Below are positions 3,079-16,342 of a DNA stretch of 64,000 nt, piece by piece. The notes under the pieces are model-generated. The model made no database searches. It was not told where the DNA came from and was given only the letters and a program-made list of their open reading frames with translations. The stretch lies in the NCBI RefSeq assembly GCF_048403405.1, contig NZ_CP183129.1. One strand, 5' to 3'. The DNA comes from Escherichia coli (lineage in GTDB: Bacteria; Pseudomonadota; Gammaproteobacteria; Enterobacterales; Enterobacteriaceae). The translations under genes were made by a program, and so were the position numbers. Positions within the stretch are counted from its first letter, which is position 1. The number at the start of each line of letters is the position of its first letter.

Positions 3079-4449
3079 ATGGCTCGTTCTTTTAAAGTCT
3101 TATCGCCAACGGCAATCCTCGGGTATGGATTCCCGGAAGAGAGCTTCCGTAAAGCGATGGCAGAATCGCCCGATCTGATCGCCGTTGATGCAGGCTCTTC
3201 CGATCCTGGCCCCCACTACCTCGGGGCGGGCAAACCGTTTACCGATCGCGCAGGGGTCAAGCGCGATCTGCGCTATATGATCACCGCAGGCGTGCAAAAT
3301 AATATACCGGTGGTGATCGGAACGGCTGGCGGTTCTGGTGCCGCACCACACCTGGAGTGGTGCCGAGAAATAATTCATGAGATTGCCCAGGAAGAGCACC
3401 TCTCGTTCTCAATGGCGCTGATCCCGGCAGACGTTGACAAAGCCATCGTCCACCAGGCGCTGGATAACGGCAAAATCACGGCGCTGGAGTTTGTCCCGCC
3501 GTTAACCCACGACGCGATTGACGAAAGTACGTATATCGTTGCGCAAATGGGCATCGAACCCTTCCAGCGGGCGCTGAAAGAAGGCGCGCAAGTGGTGCTG
3601 GGCGGGCGCGCTTACGACCCGGCCTGCTTTGCTGCGCTTCCGATCATGCAAGGCTTTGATGAAGGTCTGGCGCTGCATTGTGGGAAAATCCTTGAATGCG
3701 CGGCAATCGCCGCAACGCCCGGCTCAGGCTCTGACTGTGCGATGGGCATCATTGATGACAACGGCTTTACGCTGAAGACATTTAATCCGAAGCGTAAATT
3801 TACCGAAACGTCAGCGGCTGCACACACACTGTATGAGAAATCCGATCCCTACTTCCTGCCTGGACCTGGCGGCGTGTTGAACCTGAAAGGCTGCACATTT
3901 AAAGCGGTCAATGACAGCGAAGTGTACGTCAGCGGTTCTAAGCATGAAGAAACGCCGTATGCCCTGAAACTGGAAGGTGCGCGACGAGTGGGCTTCCGCT
4001 GTCTGACCATCGCAGGAACGCGCGACCCGATCATGATCGCCGGGATCGATAAAATCATCGATGAAGTCAAAACCAGCGTTTCGCGTAACCTGTCGCTCGA
4101 CGATGACAGCATTCGCATCAATTTCCACCTGTACGGCAAAAACGGGGTGATGGGAGACCATGAACCGATGCAAACTGCCGGGCATGAGCTGGGGATTGTC
4201 CTTGATGTAGTTGCACCGACCCAGGAAATTGCCAACAGCGTTTGCTCGCTGGTGCGCTCTACCATGCTGCACTACGGCTATGAAAACCGCATCGCTACCG
4301 CAGGTAATCTGGCGTTCCCGTTCTCCCCTTCTGATATCCAGGGCGGGCCGGTATACGAATTTTCCATATATCACCTGATTGAAGCCAACGACGCTCTGCG
4401 TTTTGATTTCCATATTGAACAGGTGACGCCAGAAGGAGTTCAGGCATGA
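3079..4449 (+). CDS. uncharacterised protein, AtuA/DUF1446-like family (function unknown)
   Basis: 456 aa ORF 3 nt after the methylaspartase stop; family assignment from memory of AtuA-like proteins, unverified. Confidence 0.55.
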   Translation: MARSFKVLSPTAILGYGFPEESFRKAMAESPDLIAVDAGSSDPGPHYLGAGKPFTDRAGVKRDLRYMITAGVQNNIPVVIGTAGGSGAAPHLEWCREIIHEIAQEEHLSFSMALIPADVDKAIVHQALDNGKITALEFVPPLTHDAIDESTYIVAQMGIEPFQRALKEGAQVVLGGRAYDPACFAALPIMQGFDEGLALHCGKILECAAIAATPGSGSDCAMGIIDDNGFTLKTFNPKRKFTETSAAAHTLYEKSDPYFLPGPGGVLNLKGCTFKAVNDSEVYVSGSKHEETPYALKLEGARRVGFRCLTIAGTRDPIMIAGIDKIIDEVKTSVSRNLSLDDDSIRINFHLYGKNGVMGDHEPMQTAGHELGIVLDVVAPTQEIANSVCSLVRSTMLHYGYENRIATAGNLAFPFSPSDIQGGPVYEFSIYHLIEANDALRFDFHIEQVTPEGVQA

Positions 4450-4763
4450 AACAGTCAATTGTCTCACTGGCGCAAGTCATTCGTTCGAAAAATGCCGGAC
4501 CTTACGAACTGGTTTTAGATATTTTATTTAAAACCAAAGAAAACTATGAGCGTGTCAAATCATCAGGGCAATTAACCCCAGAACTGATCGCGCGCTTATA
4601 TCATGTTGAACCTGACTTTATTCATCGTATTGTCTGGTTTGATCCTTCTAACGCAGTAAAAATCGTCATGCCACGAGATATTATCTCCGGGAATGTAGGT
4701 GACAATGATGTCTATGGTGCACAGCAACATGCACCTTTATTAAATATGAGTTTCGATTTGTAA
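4446..4763 (+). CDS. small uncharacterised protein, DUF4387-like partner of AtuA-like proteins
   Basis: 105 aa ORF; start ATG overlaps the upstream stop (ATGA at 4446-4449), indicating translational coupling. Confidence 0.5.
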   Translation: MKQSIVSLAQVIRSKNAGPYELVLDILFKTKENYERVKSSGQLTPELIARLYHVEPDFIHRIVWFDPSNAVKIVMPRDIISGNVGDNDVYGAQQHAPLLNMSFDL

Positions 4764-7973: not shown

Positions 7974-8576
7974 ATGGAAGCGCGAATTTCAACTGAACGG
8001 CATGTGCAGCGCCAGCAGAAATTGAAGGAACAGGTCGATACGCGCGTCGCGGCGGCGATAGAGAAAAAAGGGATTTTGATTGTTTTCACCGGCAATGGCA
8101 AAGGGAAATCCACTGCCGCGTTTGGTACTGTGACGCGCGCGGTGGGTCATGGCAAAACGGTGGGGGTTGCGCAGTACATCAAGGGGCAATGGGACAACGG
8201 CGAATACAACCTTCTCCAGCCGCTGGGGGTTGAGTTTCATATTATGGGAACCGGTTTTACCTGGGAGACACAGAACCGGCAAGCGGATATCGACGCGGCG
8301 AAAGAGGTCTGGTCGGAAAGCAAACGGATGCTGGCTGACAAGCGTTACGACTTAGTGGTGCTTGATGAGCTGACCTATATGCTGGCTTACCATTATCTGG
8401 ACACCGAAGAAGTGATCGCTTCTCTGCAAAACCGCCCGGCACAACAAAGTGTCATTGTCACCGGACGCGGTTGCCACAGTCAGATATTAAAAATGGCGGA
8501 TACGGTCAGCGAAATCCGCCCCGTCAAACATGCTTTTGATAACGGCATTCAGGCGCAGCCGGGTATCGACTGGTAA
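7974..8576 (+). CDS. corrinoid (cob(I)alamin) adenosyltransferase, BtuR/CobO-family paralog
   Basis: 200 aa with P-loop-like FTGNGKGKSTAAFG motif; close resemblance to E. coli BtuR (about 196 aa) as recalled. Confidence 0.8.
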   Translation: MEARISTERHVQRQQKLKEQVDTRVAAAIEKKGILIVFTGNGKGKSTAAFGTVTRAVGHGKTVGVAQYIKGQWDNGEYNLLQPLGVEFHIMGTGFTWETQNRQADIDAAKEVWSESKRMLADKRYDLVVLDELTYMLAYHYLDTEEVIASLQNRPAQQSVIVTGRGCHSQILKMADTVSEIRPVKHAFDNGIQAQPGIDW

Positions 8577-8609
8577 TAACTGCGCCTGGCATCCCGCCAG
8601 GCGCAGGTT

Positions 8610-9515
8610 TTACATCTCCTGCGGTACGACCGATTTCGCCAGCAACCATTCACGAAATTGCTGCAAGTGCGGCGAGTCAGACTTCTCTTCCTGCCACGTC
8701 ATAATAAAACGATTACCGGTACGAATAGGCACATCACAGGGAATCACCATATCGCCACTATCCAAATCATGTTGAATAGCGAACCGTGGTAACAGCGCCA
8801 CGCCGAGATTAGAGCGCACGGCGGCAATCAGCATTGAAAGCAAATCGAAACGTGGTCCGTTATTGACCAGCGGACTGCTAACGCCAGATAAAGCAAACCA
8901 CTCTTCCCAGCCAGTAATACGGGTGCTTTGATGCAGAAGTGGTAACTCAGTAAGCAGTTCTGCCACTGACAGTTTTTGATCGGACATTGCAAGCAAACTG
9001 CCGCTGCATACCGGCAAAATCTCCTCATCAAAGAGATATTCTACTTCCGCCCAGGGCGCGCAAAAATTTTCGCGCATAATGACAGCATCGTACTCCCGAT
9101 TAAGAAAATCGCCGTTATTAGCTAAAGAATGAATATTAACAATAATATCGGGATGTAACTTTGTGAATTCATGTAAATTTGGGATTAACCAGTGGGTACT
9201 AAAAGTAGGATTAACGGCAAGTTCAATAACCTGAACCGTAGGCTGCCAGGTCATAATGGTATTGGTATCGCGTTCCAGCTTATTTAATGTTTCTTTTACT
9301 ATCCCCAGGTAATACTTCCCTGCATCATTAAGAAAAATACGTTTTTTAGAGTGTGAAAATAACGGAGTATGTAAAAATTCCTCCAGCGCACTCACTTGTC
9401 TGAATACAGCACTTTGGGTTAACGCTAACTCCTCTGCCGCTCTGGTATAACTTTCATGACGTGCGACGACCTCAAAAGTCACCAGCAGCTCCGTTTTAGG
9501 TATTTTTCCTCGCAT
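8610..9515 (-). CDS. LysR-family transcriptional regulator
   Basis: 301 aa; N-terminal helix-turn-helix (LVTFEVVARHESYTRAAEELALTQSAVFRQVSALE) plus a substrate-binding-domain-sized C-terminus. Confidence 0.85.
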   Translation of the reverse strand: MRGKIPKTELLVTFEVVARHESYTRAAEELALTQSAVFRQVSALEEFLHTPLFSHSKKRIFLNDAGKYYLGIVKETLNKLERDTNTIMTWQPTVQVIELAVNPTFSTHWLIPNLHEFTKLHPDIIVNIHSLANNGDFLNREYDAVIMRENFCAPWAEVEYLFDEEILPVCSGSLLAMSDQKLSVAELLTELPLLHQSTRITGWEEWFALSGVSSPLVNNGPRFDLLSMLIAAVRSNLGVALLPRFAIQHDLDSGDMVIPCDVPIRTGNRFIMTWQEEKSDSPHLQQFREWLLAKSVVPQEM

Positions 9516-10080
9516 AATGCCGTCCCTTAAAAATAGTTTAAACCATCAAAAATACATTACTTATTACGAAGTAATGGTAACCAAAGCAGCAATAAATAAT
9601 TTATAAGAATCATGATTGACATTTATAACCCAGTAAGCCTGGCGTGACAAATATCTTAATCAGATAATAATAATCCGAAAAGCACAGCGCCTTTCGAATT
9701 ATCCGGAATCACATTAAGTGAAAATTATTAAATTGATATCATTTATCATATCTGTGGATATTATGATAAACAATCAACAAAGATTTTATTTTTGATTTAT
9801 AGCATATCCCTCTAAGAATTTTTGCGATGCTGCAATATCCGGGTAAAGACCCGATCCTGGCTGACAAATGGCACGACTTGACGATAAGCGGTGAACATCG
9901 CTTTTGTTGATTTACTTAACGCTACGGTCAAACGCTGGGAAGCCAGTGCATCAGGTAACGATTCGAAATTCGCCGTCGTTCTTATTCGTGGCTTGCGGTC
10001 GGTTGCGGCAATCCACAGTGGCTGTGGTCATGCAGTCAAGCCAGCGGTCAGATTTCGACCGTGGTTAACATTTAAGGCAT

Positions 10081-10179
10081 AAAAAAGGCCATCATACGAT
10101 GGCCAACCATGTCGAAACCGACAGCCCTTCGCCATTCCTGTAGAGGGAAGCGGCGAGGGCTATTTCTTATTACAGATAT
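10081..10179 (-). ncRNA. sdhX: 3'UTR-derived small RNA SdhX (RybD) at the end of the sdh-suc operon, with intrinsic terminator
   Basis: Lies immediately 3' of the sucD stop on the minus strand; ends in hairpin GGCCATCGTATGATGGCC followed by a T-run (plus strand 10081-10104); identity recalled from E. coli K-12. Confidence 0.5.
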
Positions 10180-11049
10180 TTATTTCAGAACAGTTTTCAG
10201 TGCTTCACCGATATCCGCCAGGCTGCGAACGGTTTTCACGCCTGCGGCTTCCAGAGCAGCGAATTTCTCATCCGCAGTCCCTTTTCCACCGGCAATGATC
10301 GCACCCGCGTGGCCCATACGTTTGCCTTTCGGCGCAGTCACACCAGCGATGTAACCCACAACAGGCTTGGTAACGTGCTCTTTGATGTACGCAGCCGCTT
10401 CTTCTTCAGCGCTACCGCCGATCTCACCGATCATCACGATCGCTTCGGTCTGCGGATCTTTTTCGAACATTTCGAGGATGTCGATAAAGTTAGAGCCAGG
10501 GATCGGGTCGCCGCCGATACCAACACAGGTCGACTGACCGAAACCGTAATCCGTGGTCTGTTTCACCGCTTCATAGGTCAGTGTACCGGAACGGGAAACG
10601 ATACCCACTTTACCCGGTTTGTGAATGTGACCAGGCTGGATACCGATTTTGCATTCACCCGGAGTGATAACGCCTGGGCAGTTCGGGCCGATCATGCGAA
10701 CGCCCGCTTCATCCAGTTTCACCTTCACGGTCAGCATATCCAGCGTCGGGATGCCTTCAGTGATGGTGATAATCAGTTTGATGCCTGCATCAATAGCTTC
10801 CAGAATGGAGTCTTTGCAGAACGGTGCTGGTACGTAGATAACAGAAGCGGTAGCGCCAGTAGCAGCAACAGCTTCACGCACGGTGTTGAACACCGGCAGG
10901 CCGAGGTGGGTGGTGCCGCCTTTACCTGGGGTTACGCCGCCAACCATTTTAGTGCCGTATGCAATGGCCTGTTCTGAGTGGAAAGTCCCCTGGCTACCGG
11001 TAAAGCCCTGGCAGATAACCTTGGTGTTTTTATCAATTAAAATGGACAT
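10180..11049 (-). CDS. sucD: succinyl-CoA synthetase alpha subunit
   Basis: 289 aa; [33 protein letters not shown]; canonical operon position. Confidence 0.96.
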
Positions 11050-12215: not shown

Positions 12216-12254
12216 GTGTTCTGTCCATCCTTCAGTAATCGTTATCTTTTAAAC

Positions 12255-12286
12255 CGTAGACCGACACCCTATCCACGTCGGTCTAC
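12255..12286 (-). other. 10-bp perfect inverted repeat (RNA stem-loop) in the sucB-sucC intergenic region
   Basis: GTAGACCGAC...GTCGGTCTAC with an 11-nt loop, between the sucB stop and the sucC start. Confidence 0.5.
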
Positions 12287-12308
12287 AGTGCAGGTGAAGC
12301 TTAAACTA

Positions 12309-13540: not shown

Positions 13541-16342
13541 TTATTCGACGTTCAGCGCGTCATTAACCAGATCTTGTTGCTGTTTCTGGTGAACGGACAT
13601 ATACCCTACCGCCGGAGAGGCGGAGGCCGGGCGGCCTGCATAACGCAGAGAAGCCCCAAACGGAATCACTTCACGGAAATGATGCTGGCTGCAGTACCAT
13701 GCGCCCTGGTTGAGCGGCTCTTCCTGGCACCAGACAAAATCCTTGACGTGAGCAAACTGCTGCAACACTTCCTGCATCGCTTTATGCGGGAACGGGTAGA
13801 GTTGCTCGATACGCACAATGGCGACATCGTGTTGATTGTTCTTACGGCGTTGTTCCAACAGGTCGTAATAAACCTTACCAGAACACATCACTACGCGCTT
13901 CACACCCTTCGGATCAAGCTCGTCGATTTCACCAATGGCAGGCAGGAAGGTGCCGTTCGCCAGTTCTTCGAGGCTGGAAACCGCCAGCGGATGACGCAGC
14001 AGGGATTTCGGCGACATCACGACCAGCGGACGACGCATCCCGCGCAGCGCCTGACGACGCAGCATGTGGTAAACCTGTGCCGGGGTAGACGGTACGCACA
14101 CCTGCATGTTTTGCTCAGCACAAAGTTGCAGATAACGTTCCAGACGCGCGGAGGAGTGCTCCGGCCCCTGCCCTTCGTAACCGTGCGGCAGCAACATCAC
14201 CAGACCACACATCCGGCCCCATTTCTGTTCGCCAGAGGAGATGAACTGGTCGATAACCACCTGAGCACCGTTAGCGAAGTCACCGAACTGTGCTTCCCAG
14301 ATAGTCAGAGTGCGTGGTTCTGCGGTGGCATAACCGTATTCAAACGCCAGCACGGCTTCTTCTGACAGTACGGAGTCCCAGACACGAAACGCGCCCTGAC
14401 CGTTATGGATGTGTTGCAGCGGCGTGTAAGTGGAACCGTTAGACTGGTTGTGGATCACCGCGTGGCGGTGGAAGAAGGTACCGCGACCGGAGTCTTCACC
14501 CGACAGGCGAACCGGAATGCCTTCGTCAACCAGCGTGGCGTAAGCGAGGTTTTCCGCGCCGCCCCAGTCGAACAGTTTCTCACCAGCTGCCATCGCCTGG
14601 CGATCGCCATAAATCTTGGCAACGCGAGACTGCATTTCAACTGCTTCCGGCACCGTGCTGATGCGTTTAGCCAGTTCCTGCAGGCGCTTCATCTCAACTT
14701 TGTTCGGGTACTCTTCGTCCCATTCGTGGTTGAGGTACGGCGACCAGGTGAAAGAGTGCATGTTCATCGGACGCCACTCTGCCACTACGCAATCGCCAGC
14801 ATCCAGCGCATCGCGGTACAGGTTAACCATCTCGGTGGCATCTTCGAGCGTCGCCACTTTTTCTTGCTCCAGCTTGTCAGCGTAGATTTTGCGCGGCGTC
14901 GGATGTTTTTTGATTTTCTGATACATCAGCGGCTGGGTTGCGCTCGGCTCGTCGGCTTCGTTGTGGCCATGACGGCGGTAGCACACCAGGTCGATGAAGA
15001 CATCACGTTTAAAGGTGTTACGGAAATCGAGCGCCAGACGGGTCACAAAGGCAACGGCTTCCGGATCATCCGCGTTAACGTGGAAAATCGGTGCCTGAAC
15101 CATCTTACCGATATCAGTACAGTACGGCGTCGAACGGGCATCCAGCGGGTTAGAGGTGGTGAAGCCAACCTGGTTGTTGATAACGATACGTACCGTACCG
15201 CCAACTTCATAGCCACGCGCTTTCGACATGTTCAGGGTTTCCTGAACCACGCCCTGCCCGGTCACTGCGGCGTCACCGTGGATGGTAATTGGCAGCACTT
15301 TGTTGCTGCTCGGCTCATCAAGTCTGTCCAGACGGGCACGAACAGAACCGATAACGACCGGGCTTACAATCTCAAGGTGAGACGGGTTAAACGCCAGCGC
15401 CAGGTGTACCAGGCCGCCATCGGTCTGGAAGTCAGACGAGAAGCCCATGTGGTATTTCACGTCACCCGTGCCGAGGTGTTCTTTATGTTTACCGGCAAAC
15501 TCGTCGAACAAGTCTTGCGGTTTTTTACCCAGCACGTTCACCAGCACGTTCAGACGACCACGGTGCGCCATCCCAAGAACCACTTCGCGGGTGCCGCTGT
15601 TGCCAGCGTGGCGGATCATCTCTTTAAGCATCGGGATTAACGCGTCACCGCCTTCCAGCGAGAAGCGTTTTGCACCAGGGAATTTTGCACCGAGGTAACG
15701 TTCAAGGCCTTCAGCGGCGGTCAGTTCGCTTAAGAAGCGTTTTTTCTCTTCGCTATTGAAAGTCGCGCGACCAGACTCGATACGCTGTTGGATCCAGCGT
15801 TTTTCTTCGGTGCTGGTAATATGCATATACTCGGCGCCAATCGGGCCGCAGTAGGTTTGCTTGAGTGCTTCCAGCAGTTCGCCGAGTTTCATGGTTTCTT
15901 TGCCGCTGGCAAATGAACCGACGTTGAAGGTCTCCTGGAAGTCTGCTTCGGTCAGATCGTGGAAAGACGGATCCAGATCGGCCACTTTATCTTGCTGCCA
16001 CAGTCCCAGCGGATCGAGATTCGCATGCTGGTGACCACGGAAGCGGTATGCGTTAATGAGCTGCAGGACTTTAACCTGCTTCACATTGGTGTCAGGGTCG
16101 GAGATCGTTGAAGAGTAACGTGAAGCGTCTTTCGCCAGGCGGCGGAAATATTCACGCGTTTGAGAGTGGAATTGATCCGGTTTGACTCCCGTACCAGGTA
16201 ACTGCTGGAACGTCGAACGCCAGTTAGCGTCAACCGAGTCAGGATCGGTTAAGAAGTCTTCATAGAGCTGTTCTATCCAGCTCTGGTTTGCGCCAGAGAG
16301 GTAAGAAGAGTCCAACCAGGCTTTCAAAGCGCTGTTCTGCAT
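13541..16342 (-). CDS. sucA: 2-oxoglutarate dehydrogenase E1 component
   Basis: 933 aa; [31 protein letters not shown]. Confidence 0.96.

Follow-up and report, generated by a model that had tools for sequence, protein, structure and literature searches.

The interval 8610–11049 of the window, the 64,000-nucleotide stretch of Escherichia coli DNA analysed here, is very probably the sucD-proximal end of a strain-variable methylaspartate cluster, made up of a LysR gene, its upstream region, a hutH-like/rtcB scar, and an unchanged SdhX region. We base this reading on the anatomy of the interval, homologies, junction positions, population counts, and cross-genus synteny, all of which were read directly. 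In the fuller form of the locus, the spacer upstream of the LysR gene separates it from a co-oriented hut operon. One large and two small deletions would have removed this operon and most of rtcB, leaving a short scar that brings the cluster up to the SdhX terminator. The sucD 3'UTR, which in K-12 yields SdhX, would have stayed unchanged throughout. The adjacency of cluster and terminator would then be due to gene loss in a multi-module locus and not to the insertion of an island.

The regulator gene and its upstream region

The methylaspartate cluster fills the gap between cydA and sucD in ~21% of E. coli. In the window, glmS/glmE, mal, and fumD are co-localized, with cobA/cobO and a LysR-type transcriptional regulator (LTTR) at the end, and the fumD product is a FumD-type class I fumarase (1284 bits vs. 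a cutoff of 1060). Genes and order are the same as those reported for O157:H7 and other Enterobacteriaceae by Kronen & Berg 2015 (PMC4682846), namely glmS-glmL-glmE-mal-DUF1446/AtuA-DUF4387-gltP-fumD-cobA/cobO, followed by a convergent regulator, which is labelled LTTR in Figure 5 of that paper. The cluster and its LTTR, like SdhX (PMC6393394), are already published, while the portions of PMC4682846 considered here do not mention the sucD junction or the hut and rtcB modules and their remnants. The same source gives a prevalence of 26.5% of E. coli strains in 2015, compared to 20.8% of complete genomes in our analysis (1,127/5,426 carrying the LysR gene at ≥95% identity).

The LysR-type regulator gene occupies 8610–9515 on the minus strand and encodes 301 residues, a putative regulator of the methylaspartate (glutamate-fermentation) cluster. 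The product, named a LysR substrate-binding-domain protein in RefSeq, has the size (~300 residues), N-terminal winged-HTH, and C-terminal substrate-binding domain of LTTRs. It aligns over its full length (residues 3–295) with LTTR family models, the top match being the GcvA subfamily (E 1e-65). With 221.8 bits against a cutoff of 288 for the GcvA orthologue model (NCBIfam NF008352), it is GcvA-like, not GcvA. As the first-pass annotation had observed, the gene is convergent with the catabolic operon rather than divergent from it: cobO runs from 7974 to 8576 on the plus strand, and a GC-rich, terminator-like hairpin (8580–8606; 11-bp stem with 9 GC pairs, then GTTTT on the plus strand) lies between the cobO stop at 8576 and the LysR stop at 8610. 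LTTRs are typically, though not obligatorily, divergent from their target promoter and carry a T-N11-A autoregulatory box. This layout is not found here; in each of the 32 loci for which both ends could be read, drawn from nine genera (Escherichia, Citrobacter, Salmonella, Klebsiella, Raoultella, Enterobacter, Pluralibacter, Buttiauxella, and Lelliottia), the gene faces cobO or fumD and the cluster convergently, and in 19 of these loci it is preceded by sucC-sucD on the same strand. The gene is intact, belongs to the cluster, and most likely controls it, a target that we infer from synteny.

The region upstream of the LysR gene (9516–9785, minus strand, 270 bp) is AT-rich, with 28.9% GC compared to 51.9% for the window as a whole. 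Only 0.3% of 270-bp windows are equally low, and the lowest value in the whole window falls at 9527, inside the spacer; the AT-rich part stops at ~9785–9840, with 47% GC beyond. The spacer contains a Shine–Dalgarno-like AAGGGA, a block at 9529–9541 (TTAAACTATTTTT) conserved across genera in a comparison of upstream regions, a candidate dyad at 9556–9575 (ATTACTT-N6-AAGTAAT), the only one found and not a T-N11-A box, and a weak candidate promoter at 9628–9600 (TTATAA-N17-TATAAA). The dyad is lost in MOD1-EC7003 in the same comparison, and no second copy above chance was found across the whole cydA–sucD locus. A sigma-70 scan returned three matches, compared to 3.7 expected, none of them on the LysR strand within the spacer. 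It is plausible that the gene is transcribed from its own AT-rich upstream region, at a promoter position that we infer.

The spacer had been proposed as a recombination junction, a proposal refuted by its collinearity with the intergenic region between LysR and HAL in strains EC488 and RM14723 (86.7% identical). By this comparison, it is what normally separates LysR from hutH in strains whose hut operon is intact. The order in EC488 is cluster-LysR-HAL-hutG-hutI-hutD-permease-hutU-rtcB-sucD, and RM14723 has in addition mngB-mngA-mngR before sucD, so that cluster, hut, rtcB, and mngBAR stand in tandem. In both strains, the LysR gene follows the hut genes on the same strand at a distance of 270 bp, the hut cluster has no gene for a HutC-type repressor, and Hut products supply glutamate to the methylaspartate pathway. 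Each of these points would suit a regulator that belongs to the lost hut operon, not to the methylaspartate cluster, and that is now an orphan in this strain. We consider this unlikely, given that orthologues from eight other genera (80–88% identity) are always neighbors of the cluster and of cobO or fumD, that their fetched flanks contain no hut genes, and that the gene is retained at ≥95% identity in ~830 genomes devoid of hut. Roles in hut and in the cluster are not mutually exclusive.

Gene remnants beside an unchanged SdhX region

The segment 9786–10082 (~300 bp) is a mosaic of four gene fragments, two each from rtcB and from a HAL/HutH-like ammonia-lyase gene. The pieces of both genes combine DNA and protein similarity with the expected order and orientation, and they are truncated or frameshifted, as pseudogene remnants are. 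(i) Remnant A (9786–9922, minus strand) comprises lyase codons 511–556 and the stop, with a 1-nt frameshift near 9840–9842; it aligns by blastn to positions 15387–15524 of sequence L003, and by tblastn in two pieces, residues 511–538 and 539–556 (E 1e-16). (ii) Remnant B (9917–9978, minus strand; codons 378–397, tblastn E 3e-8) comes from the same gene and is joined to A by a 343-bp internal lyase deletion at an imperfect 9-bp microhomology, CYAAYGCCA. (iii) Remnant C (9982–10038, plus strand) holds rtcB codons ~376–394 (tblastn E 1e-13). Its join to B corresponds to a ~9.1-kb deletion, which took hutG, hutI, hutD, hutU, a permease gene, the greater part of rtcB, and two-thirds of the lyase gene from its 5' end. 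(iv) Remnant D (10039–10082, plus strand), separated from C by a 175-bp rtcB deletion, is the 3' end of rtcB, with the last ~15–16 codons (tblastn E 4e-7) and a TAA stop at 10080–10082 that overlaps the A-tract of the sdh-suc terminator.

Together, the three deletions account for ~9.6 kb. Projected onto fuller loci, 9400–9922 corresponds to the 5' end of LysR, the spacer, and the 3' end of HAL; 9918–9978 to internal HAL; 9982–10038 to internal rtcB; and 10039–10260 to the 3' end of rtcB, sdhX, and sucD. What is left of the coding sequences amounts to 66 of 556 codons for HAL and about 34 of 465 for RtcB; these pieces contain one frameshift and one out-of-frame join, and the Hut half of the locus is reduced to ~190 bp of remnants. 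The scar is presumably non-functional.

Among ~830 genomes, the scar is 94.7–100% conserved, with 98.6% identity in O157:H7 genomes. Scar and spacer are ~87% identical to intact alleles, compared to 99.3% for the adjoining LysR gene; relative to RM14723, there is one mismatch in 8610–9338, five in 9339–9515, and 36 in 9516–9785. This drop in identity indicates that the scar was not recently derived from the sampled intact alleles, and one has to assume either that recombination had a breakpoint close to where LysR starts or that the parental allele was a divergent one outside the sample.

The sucD 3'UTR (10081–10179, minus strand), the region of the SdhX (RybD) sRNA, is identical to that of K-12 and directly follows sucD (10180–11049, minus strand; supported by ORF and annotation), the last gene of the sdhCDAB-sucABCD operon. 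In K-12, SdhX is an Hfq-dependent sRNA processed by RNase E from the operon mRNA, and its seed, terminator, and biogenesis were defined by Miyakoshi et al. 2019 (PMC6393394). In the window, the seed UUCGACAUGGU (core CGACAU) lies at 10106–10116 on the minus strand, ahead of a terminator hairpin at 10087–10104 that is followed by six U residues (U-tract 10081–10086). The 3'UTR starts from the sucD stop codon (10180–10182) and ends at the operon's Rho-independent terminator, and the predicted fold of the region has −42.1 kcal/mol (z = −5.0). Across 10077–10260, identity to K-12 strain DH1 is 99.5%, the sole mismatch (10079) falling outside the sRNA. An Rfam scan of 8000–11000 at E ≤ 1 gave no matches, SdhX included, so the identity of SdhX rests on the K-12 alignment and the literature. 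The first-pass annotation had named this 3'UTR as the source of SdhX and considered it undisturbed, and both points hold: from the sucD stop through the terminator, the sequence is that of K-12, with seed and E. coli-specific upstream part included. Given 100% identity across the 3'UTR, expression, RNase E processing, and Hfq binding of SdhX would be expected in this strain as well. Of 5,426 genomes, only one lacks an intact terminator/SdhX region. The neighbor of this region differs: in K-12, it is the convergent mngR, with a stop codon 5 nt away from the A-tract of the terminator, whereas in the window an rtcB remnant abuts the terminator, and the next intact gene, 565 bp downstream, is the LysR gene, co-oriented with sucD.

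Locus variants and the origin of the junction

A census of the sucD-side junction in 5,426 complete genomes found four types that make up 5,401 of them: mngR adjoining sucD (3,867), the lyase/rtcB scar (~830), a TPR gene (547), and intact rtcB (157). Both halves of the fuller locus, Hut and methylaspartate, are intact in ~144 genomes. Strains AST85 and LHM10-1 have the order cluster-LysR-rtcB, with or without mngBAR, and the cluster and mngBAR occur in tandem in LHM10-1 and MOD1-EC7003 as well. The scar of Escherichia sp. E1V33 is a larger, nested version whose breakpoint on the rtcB side is the one seen in the window, and E. whittamii, MOD1-EC7003, and AST85-type strains carry hut deletions other than that of the window. 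The scars compared across these genomes, independent as well as nested, show that hut was lost more than once.

K-12 (sucD-mngR-mngA-mngB-cydA) shares with the window the flanking core genes sucD and cydA, the terminator, and a hexamer, GCA(C/T)AA, that follows the mngR stop and equals the last codon and stop of rtcB. It is without methylaspartate cluster, hut, or rtcB sequence; the window, in turn, is without mng genes. We considered the possibility that all variants derive from the full-length form. This was not upheld for K-12, where no cluster remnants are detectable between cydA and mngB.

The junction between rtcB and the terminator (…TTTAAGG followed by CATAAAAAAGG) was also examined as a possible chimera, left by a deletion of mngBAR that joined the last rtcB codon (in the KG* form) to the mngR stop. 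This candidate was rejected: among RtcB homologues from other taxa, …TFKA is the usual ending (113 of 120), as in remnant D, so the GCA-TAA abutting the terminator is probably the native end of rtcB. An insertion of mngBAR between the rtcB codons AAG and GCA may then be more likely than a deletion. In a relative at ~80% identity, rtcB ends in …FKG* (GGA TGA) and is followed by a TPR gene; a terminal glycine can therefore also come from point mutation.

These comparisons bear on the first-pass annotation's main proposal, a one-event insertion of an island distal to the sdh-suc terminator that displaced the K-12 mng locus and left 9516–10080 as a junction with its remnants. Several of its elements stand. 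Collinearity with K-12 sets in only at 10073 (megablast) or 10077 (blastn), which places the break immediately distal to the terminator, as proposed; an alignment in which 9516–10080 is collinear with K-12, named by the proposal itself as counter-evidence, was not obtained; mngRAB is absent from the window; and the segment does contain junctions and gene remnants. These remnants, however, are hutH-like and rtcB fragments, and no mngR remnant is present, so the part of the claim that derives them from a displaced K-12 locus fails. A single insertion at the terminator is further contradicted by the tandem arrangement of the cluster and mngBAR in RM14723, LHM10-1, and MOD1-EC7003, by the rtcB end at 10039–10082, a terminator-proximal junction common to strains with intact rtcB, and by the cluster adjoining sucD in Salmonella arizonae and diarizonae, Citrobacter, and Klebsiella. 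Nor does the locus have the features of a mobile island: annotation lists no integrase or transposase gene between cydA and sucD, a tRNA search at the locus found none, and the suggested search for direct repeats at the junction (extended to inverted repeats) gave only short chance matches and no target-site duplication. The locus resembles classical integrative islands in its strain-variable accessory genes, fixed chromosomal position, and AT-rich edge, but it differs from them in lacking integrase, tRNA, and direct repeats, and in a position conserved across genera. At 51%, the GC content of the cluster is no different from the window as a whole. We regard a one-event insertion as highly improbable. 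Because cluster, hut, rtcB, and mngBAR occur in tandem in some E. coli, the K-12 genes and the cluster are not alternatives at one insertion site. The variation fits best with a hotspot at which modules are differentially lost and exchanged.

It is just as improbable that the scar has been co-opted, either as a real small protein (ORF 9891–10082, 63 residues) or as a 5' leader or regulatory element for LysR: the ORF is open in the window and is listed as a 'hypothetical protein' in a few RefSeq genomes, and the conserved segment is flanked by the sdh-suc terminator on one side and by LysR, in the same orientation, on the other, but the ORF is a patchwork in which lyase antisense sequence is combined with a piece of rtcB read out of frame and with the last 16 codons of rtcB, most annotations call no gene there, Rfam gives no match, E1V33, E. 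whittamii, and AST85-type strains differ in sequence here with LysR still intact, and recent common descent would give the same conservation.

Possible histidine and glutamate catabolism at the cydA–sucD locus

The Hut module is predicted to convert histidine to glutamate, and the methylaspartate module glutamate to mesaconate and citramalate. In fuller E. coli variants, the two modules lie side by side, reminiscent of an 'oxidative histidine pathway' of gut anaerobes (bioRxiv 10.64898/2026.06.22.733842), in which study an E. coli strain served as the non-histidine-metabolising control. Unlike that pathway, the Hut half is present in the window only as remnants. By analogy, the ancestral Escherichia cydA–sucD locus may have been one histidine-to-glutamate-to-mesaconate/citramalate supercluster, in which the Hut and B12-dependent methylaspartate modules shared the central LysR and from which the Hut half was lost independently at least four times, the scar in the window being one relic. 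We put this forward tentatively, as a possibility with the odds against it. In scar-type strains, the 565 bp from the SdhX terminator to the LysR gene contain no predicted terminator; given the shared strand, read-through of the SdhX terminator could tie LysR expression to transcription of the TCA operon.

In summary, a locus that resembles an island insertion site is in fact a hotspot of several modules, with gene loss behind most of the differences between its variants, and the 63-residue 'hypothetical protein' of some annotations is pieced together from fragments of genes. The scar is usable as a lineage marker, with O157:H7 among its carriers. Kronen & Berg found no conditions for expression of the cluster, and fermentation of glutamate or histidine could not be demonstrated in the published O157:H7 work (PMC4682846). 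The rare strains with intact Hut and methylaspartate modules are the ones suited to asking whether E. coli can ferment histidine or glutamate.

Layout of the cydA-sucD interval

The gap between cydA and sucD is taken up by a methylaspartate (glutamate-fermentation) cluster in the complete genome and by mngR-mngA-mngB in K-12. Left of a LysR-family gene, the plus strand carries glmE, mal, an AtuA-family gene, DUF4387, a dicarboxylate/amino-acid symporter, a class I fumarase, and cobO. The LysR gene (8610-9515), identified by ORF, annotation, and profile match, is convergent with this cluster, and sucD (10180-11049), with sucC, sucB, and sucA to its right, lies on the minus strand (ORF and annotation). 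The E. coli strain TUM14771 is 100% identical to the window across 8400-10400.

The first-pass annotation placed the boundary of a catabolic island here, just distal to the sdh-suc terminator, and its components are real. The LysR ORF aligns end-to-end with LTTR models (best match GcvA-like, E 1e-65, below the GcvA cutoff); the AT-rich spacer (9516-9785, 28.9% GC) is the lowest 270-bp window of the full 64 kb; and K-12 shows no differences from 10080 on, including the seed of SdhX, the sRNA from the sucD 3'UTR (10081-10179; PMC6393394), the terminator hairpin (10087-10104), and the U-tract. Collinearity with K-12 begins at 10073-10077, so the boundary was correctly positioned, but the history proposed behind it is partly wrong. 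Further into the suc operon, the sucB(odhB)-sucC gap spans 93 bp in the window (12216-12308), EC488, and RM14723, and 274 bp in AST85 and K-12 DH1 (L002 11143-11416), a ~180-bp insertion/deletion polymorphism.

A profile scan of the AtuA-family (DUF1446) and DUF4387 gene pair (3079-4763) gave no NCBIfam match; since the fate of citramalate in the pathway is unknown (Kronen & Berg, PMC4682846), the two genes are candidates for the missing step.

The LysR gene across genera

We recovered 32 loci in which the LysR gene and its downstream side were both readable, from Escherichia clades, Citrobacter, Salmonella enterica subsp. arizonae and diarizonae, Klebsiella, Raoultella, Enterobacter, Pluralibacter, Buttiauxella, and Lelliottia. 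Orthologues (80-93% identity) are convergent with cobO and the cluster in 32/32, with fumD replacing cobO in two cobO-less Escherichia loci, making this gene, labeled LTTR by Kronen & Berg (PMC4682846), a stable cluster member; the convergent layout is ancestral. The sucC-sucD pair lies upstream on the same strand in 19 of the 32 loci, and siting of the cluster beside sucD is no novelty of E. coli. The sucD-LysR gap holds hut and rtcB in E. coli, whereas in Salmonella arizonae (L039 8739-9641) and Citrobacter it holds a 300-aa ORF, by eye a candidate AraC-family regulator; the Citrobacter gap (ORFs at L018 7923-8828 and 8807-9595) also holds an apparent uroporphyrinogen-III methyltransferase gene, again by eye.

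The promoter scan for the LysR gene returned no minus-strand site above threshold. Comparison of LysR upstream regions found a TTAAACTATTTTT block (9529-9541) kept across genera, and a weak candidate promoter, TTATAA-N17-TATAAA (9628-9600), kept within Escherichia.

The lyase-rtcB scar and repeated hut loss

Fuller versions of the locus exist in other E. coli. Beyond the LysR gene, EC488 carries a same-strand hut operon (HAL/PAL/TAL-family lyase, hutG, hutI, hutD, permease, hutU) and a convergent rtcB abutting sucD; RM14723 has this gene set plus mngB-mngA-mngR between rtcB and sucD; AST85 and LHM10-1 keep rtcB and lack hut. The RM14723 lyase (L006 16271-17941) has a hydrophobic, signal-peptide-like N-terminus (MKGLIRRVTVTVVLWSVCSIAMAKST), and the hut cluster of E. 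coli includes a cytosine/purine-type permease and HutD but lacks the HutC repressor; such a lyase start and the absence of HutC are atypical relative to Klebsiella and Salmonella hut operons. K-12 and RM14723 are only 84% identical upstream of cydA and 76% at the mngB 3' end (L002 2600-3700 versus L006), and their mng modules are highly divergent alleles. A 40-bp element of the K-12 cydA-mngB spacer occurs in three copies, ~95 bp apart, in the RM14723 sdhB-sucA spacer (L006 38221-38450).

Matched to these fuller loci, the window is a mosaic: the LysR 5' end, 270-bp spacer, and last 46 lyase codons (9400-9922), an internal lyase fragment (9917-9978), an internal rtcB fragment (9982-10038), and the final rtcB codons with the stop (10039-10082). 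Likewise, tblastn recovered, for the lyase, residues 511-556 (1-nt frameshift near 9842) and residues 378-397, and for RtcB, residues ~376-398 and 451-464 (all four fragments E 1e-16 to 4e-7). Remnants within 9516-10080 had been raised as a possibility, but these derive from hut lyase and rtcB rather than from a displaced K-12 locus. The mosaic is accounted for by three deletions, one of 343 bp within the lyase gene, one of about 9.1 kb that runs from there into rtcB, and one of 175 bp within rtcB. The 343-bp junction falls in an imperfect 9-bp microhomology; the other two have at most 3 nt. A 63-aa ORF (9891-10082), which a few genome annotations list as "hypothetical", is a patchwork of these fragments.

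Identity to RM14723 falls sharply at the LysR 5' end, from 99.9% in 8610-9338 (one mismatch) to 97% in 9339-9515 (five), 86.7% in the spacer (36 in 9516-9785; 9339-9785 aligned to L006 15824-16270), and 87.5% in the lyase remnant. This drop, and the rough equidistance of the scar haplotype (about 87% identity) from every intact allele sampled, imply either recombination with a breakpoint close to the LysR start or an unsampled parental allele.

Other lineages lost hut differently. Escherichia sp. E1V33 has a bigger scar with the same rtcB-side breakpoint and longer lyase fragments, compatible with stepwise erosion; E. whittamii has part of hutU fused with a 315-bp stretch from the lyase 3' end; and MOD1-EC7003 and AST85/LHM10-1 have further hut deletions, separate from one another. 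Homology of AST85/LHM10-1 with the window stops at 9533, and their LysR-rtcB spacer is an unlike, 456-bp AT-rich segment (L004 ~9330-9450; L007 5538-5993), containing, by eye, a candidate ERIC (enterobacterial repetitive intergenic consensus) element. The B2/Nissle-type locus (cydA-TPR gene-sucD) retains small glmS, hutU, and hutU-rtcB spacer fragments at 69-82% identity (L005 7297-7671, strain 20Y000092, whose junction type is that of Nissle 1917), implying that TPR-only lineages formerly had the cluster and hut as well.

The terminator-side junction

We surveyed sucD neighbors in 5,426 complete genomes using 411-bp junction probes (places with at least 80% coverage), the scar being counted with a different, 2,001-bp query (8400-10400). 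The neighbor is mngR in 3,867 genomes, the scar in ~830 (O157:H7 and O145 among them), the TPR gene in 547, and an intact rtcB 3' end in 157, together 5,401/5,426. The LysR gene occurs in 1,127/5,426; by subtraction, about 140 genomes combine the cluster with mngBAR.

All variants meet no farther than about 6 nt from the A-tract of the terminator, reading …TTTAAGGCATAAAAAAGGCC in the rtcB type and the window, …GCGATAAGCA(C/T)AAAAAAGGCC in the mngR type, and …CCCGAATAAAAAAGGCC in the TPR type. The GCA-TAA abutting the terminator is probably how rtcB natively ends, because 113 of 120 RtcB homologues end …FKA, like the rtcB type; on that reading, mngBAR would have inserted between the two final codons of rtcB, and K-12 GCACAA might be a relic. 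A relative at about 80% identity, however, reads …FKG* followed by a TPR gene, which counts against settling this polarity. The same homologues disfavor the rtcB-type junction as a deletion chimera. Whichever polarity holds, the junction at 10076-10082 is common to strains with intact rtcB rather than particular to the methylaspartate cluster.

IS1 lies within sdhX in a single case among the 5,426 genomes, FDAARGOS_944, between mngR and sucD (L045 4248-4945); similarity there begins only inside the sRNA (equivalent to window ~10107), indicating a displaced terminator.

Publications already cover the cluster, its regulator, and SdhX, and the hutH/rtcB scar and junction census add useful detail of a familiar kind. 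The conserved edge coinciding with the terminator would fit selection against deletions reaching into sdhX.
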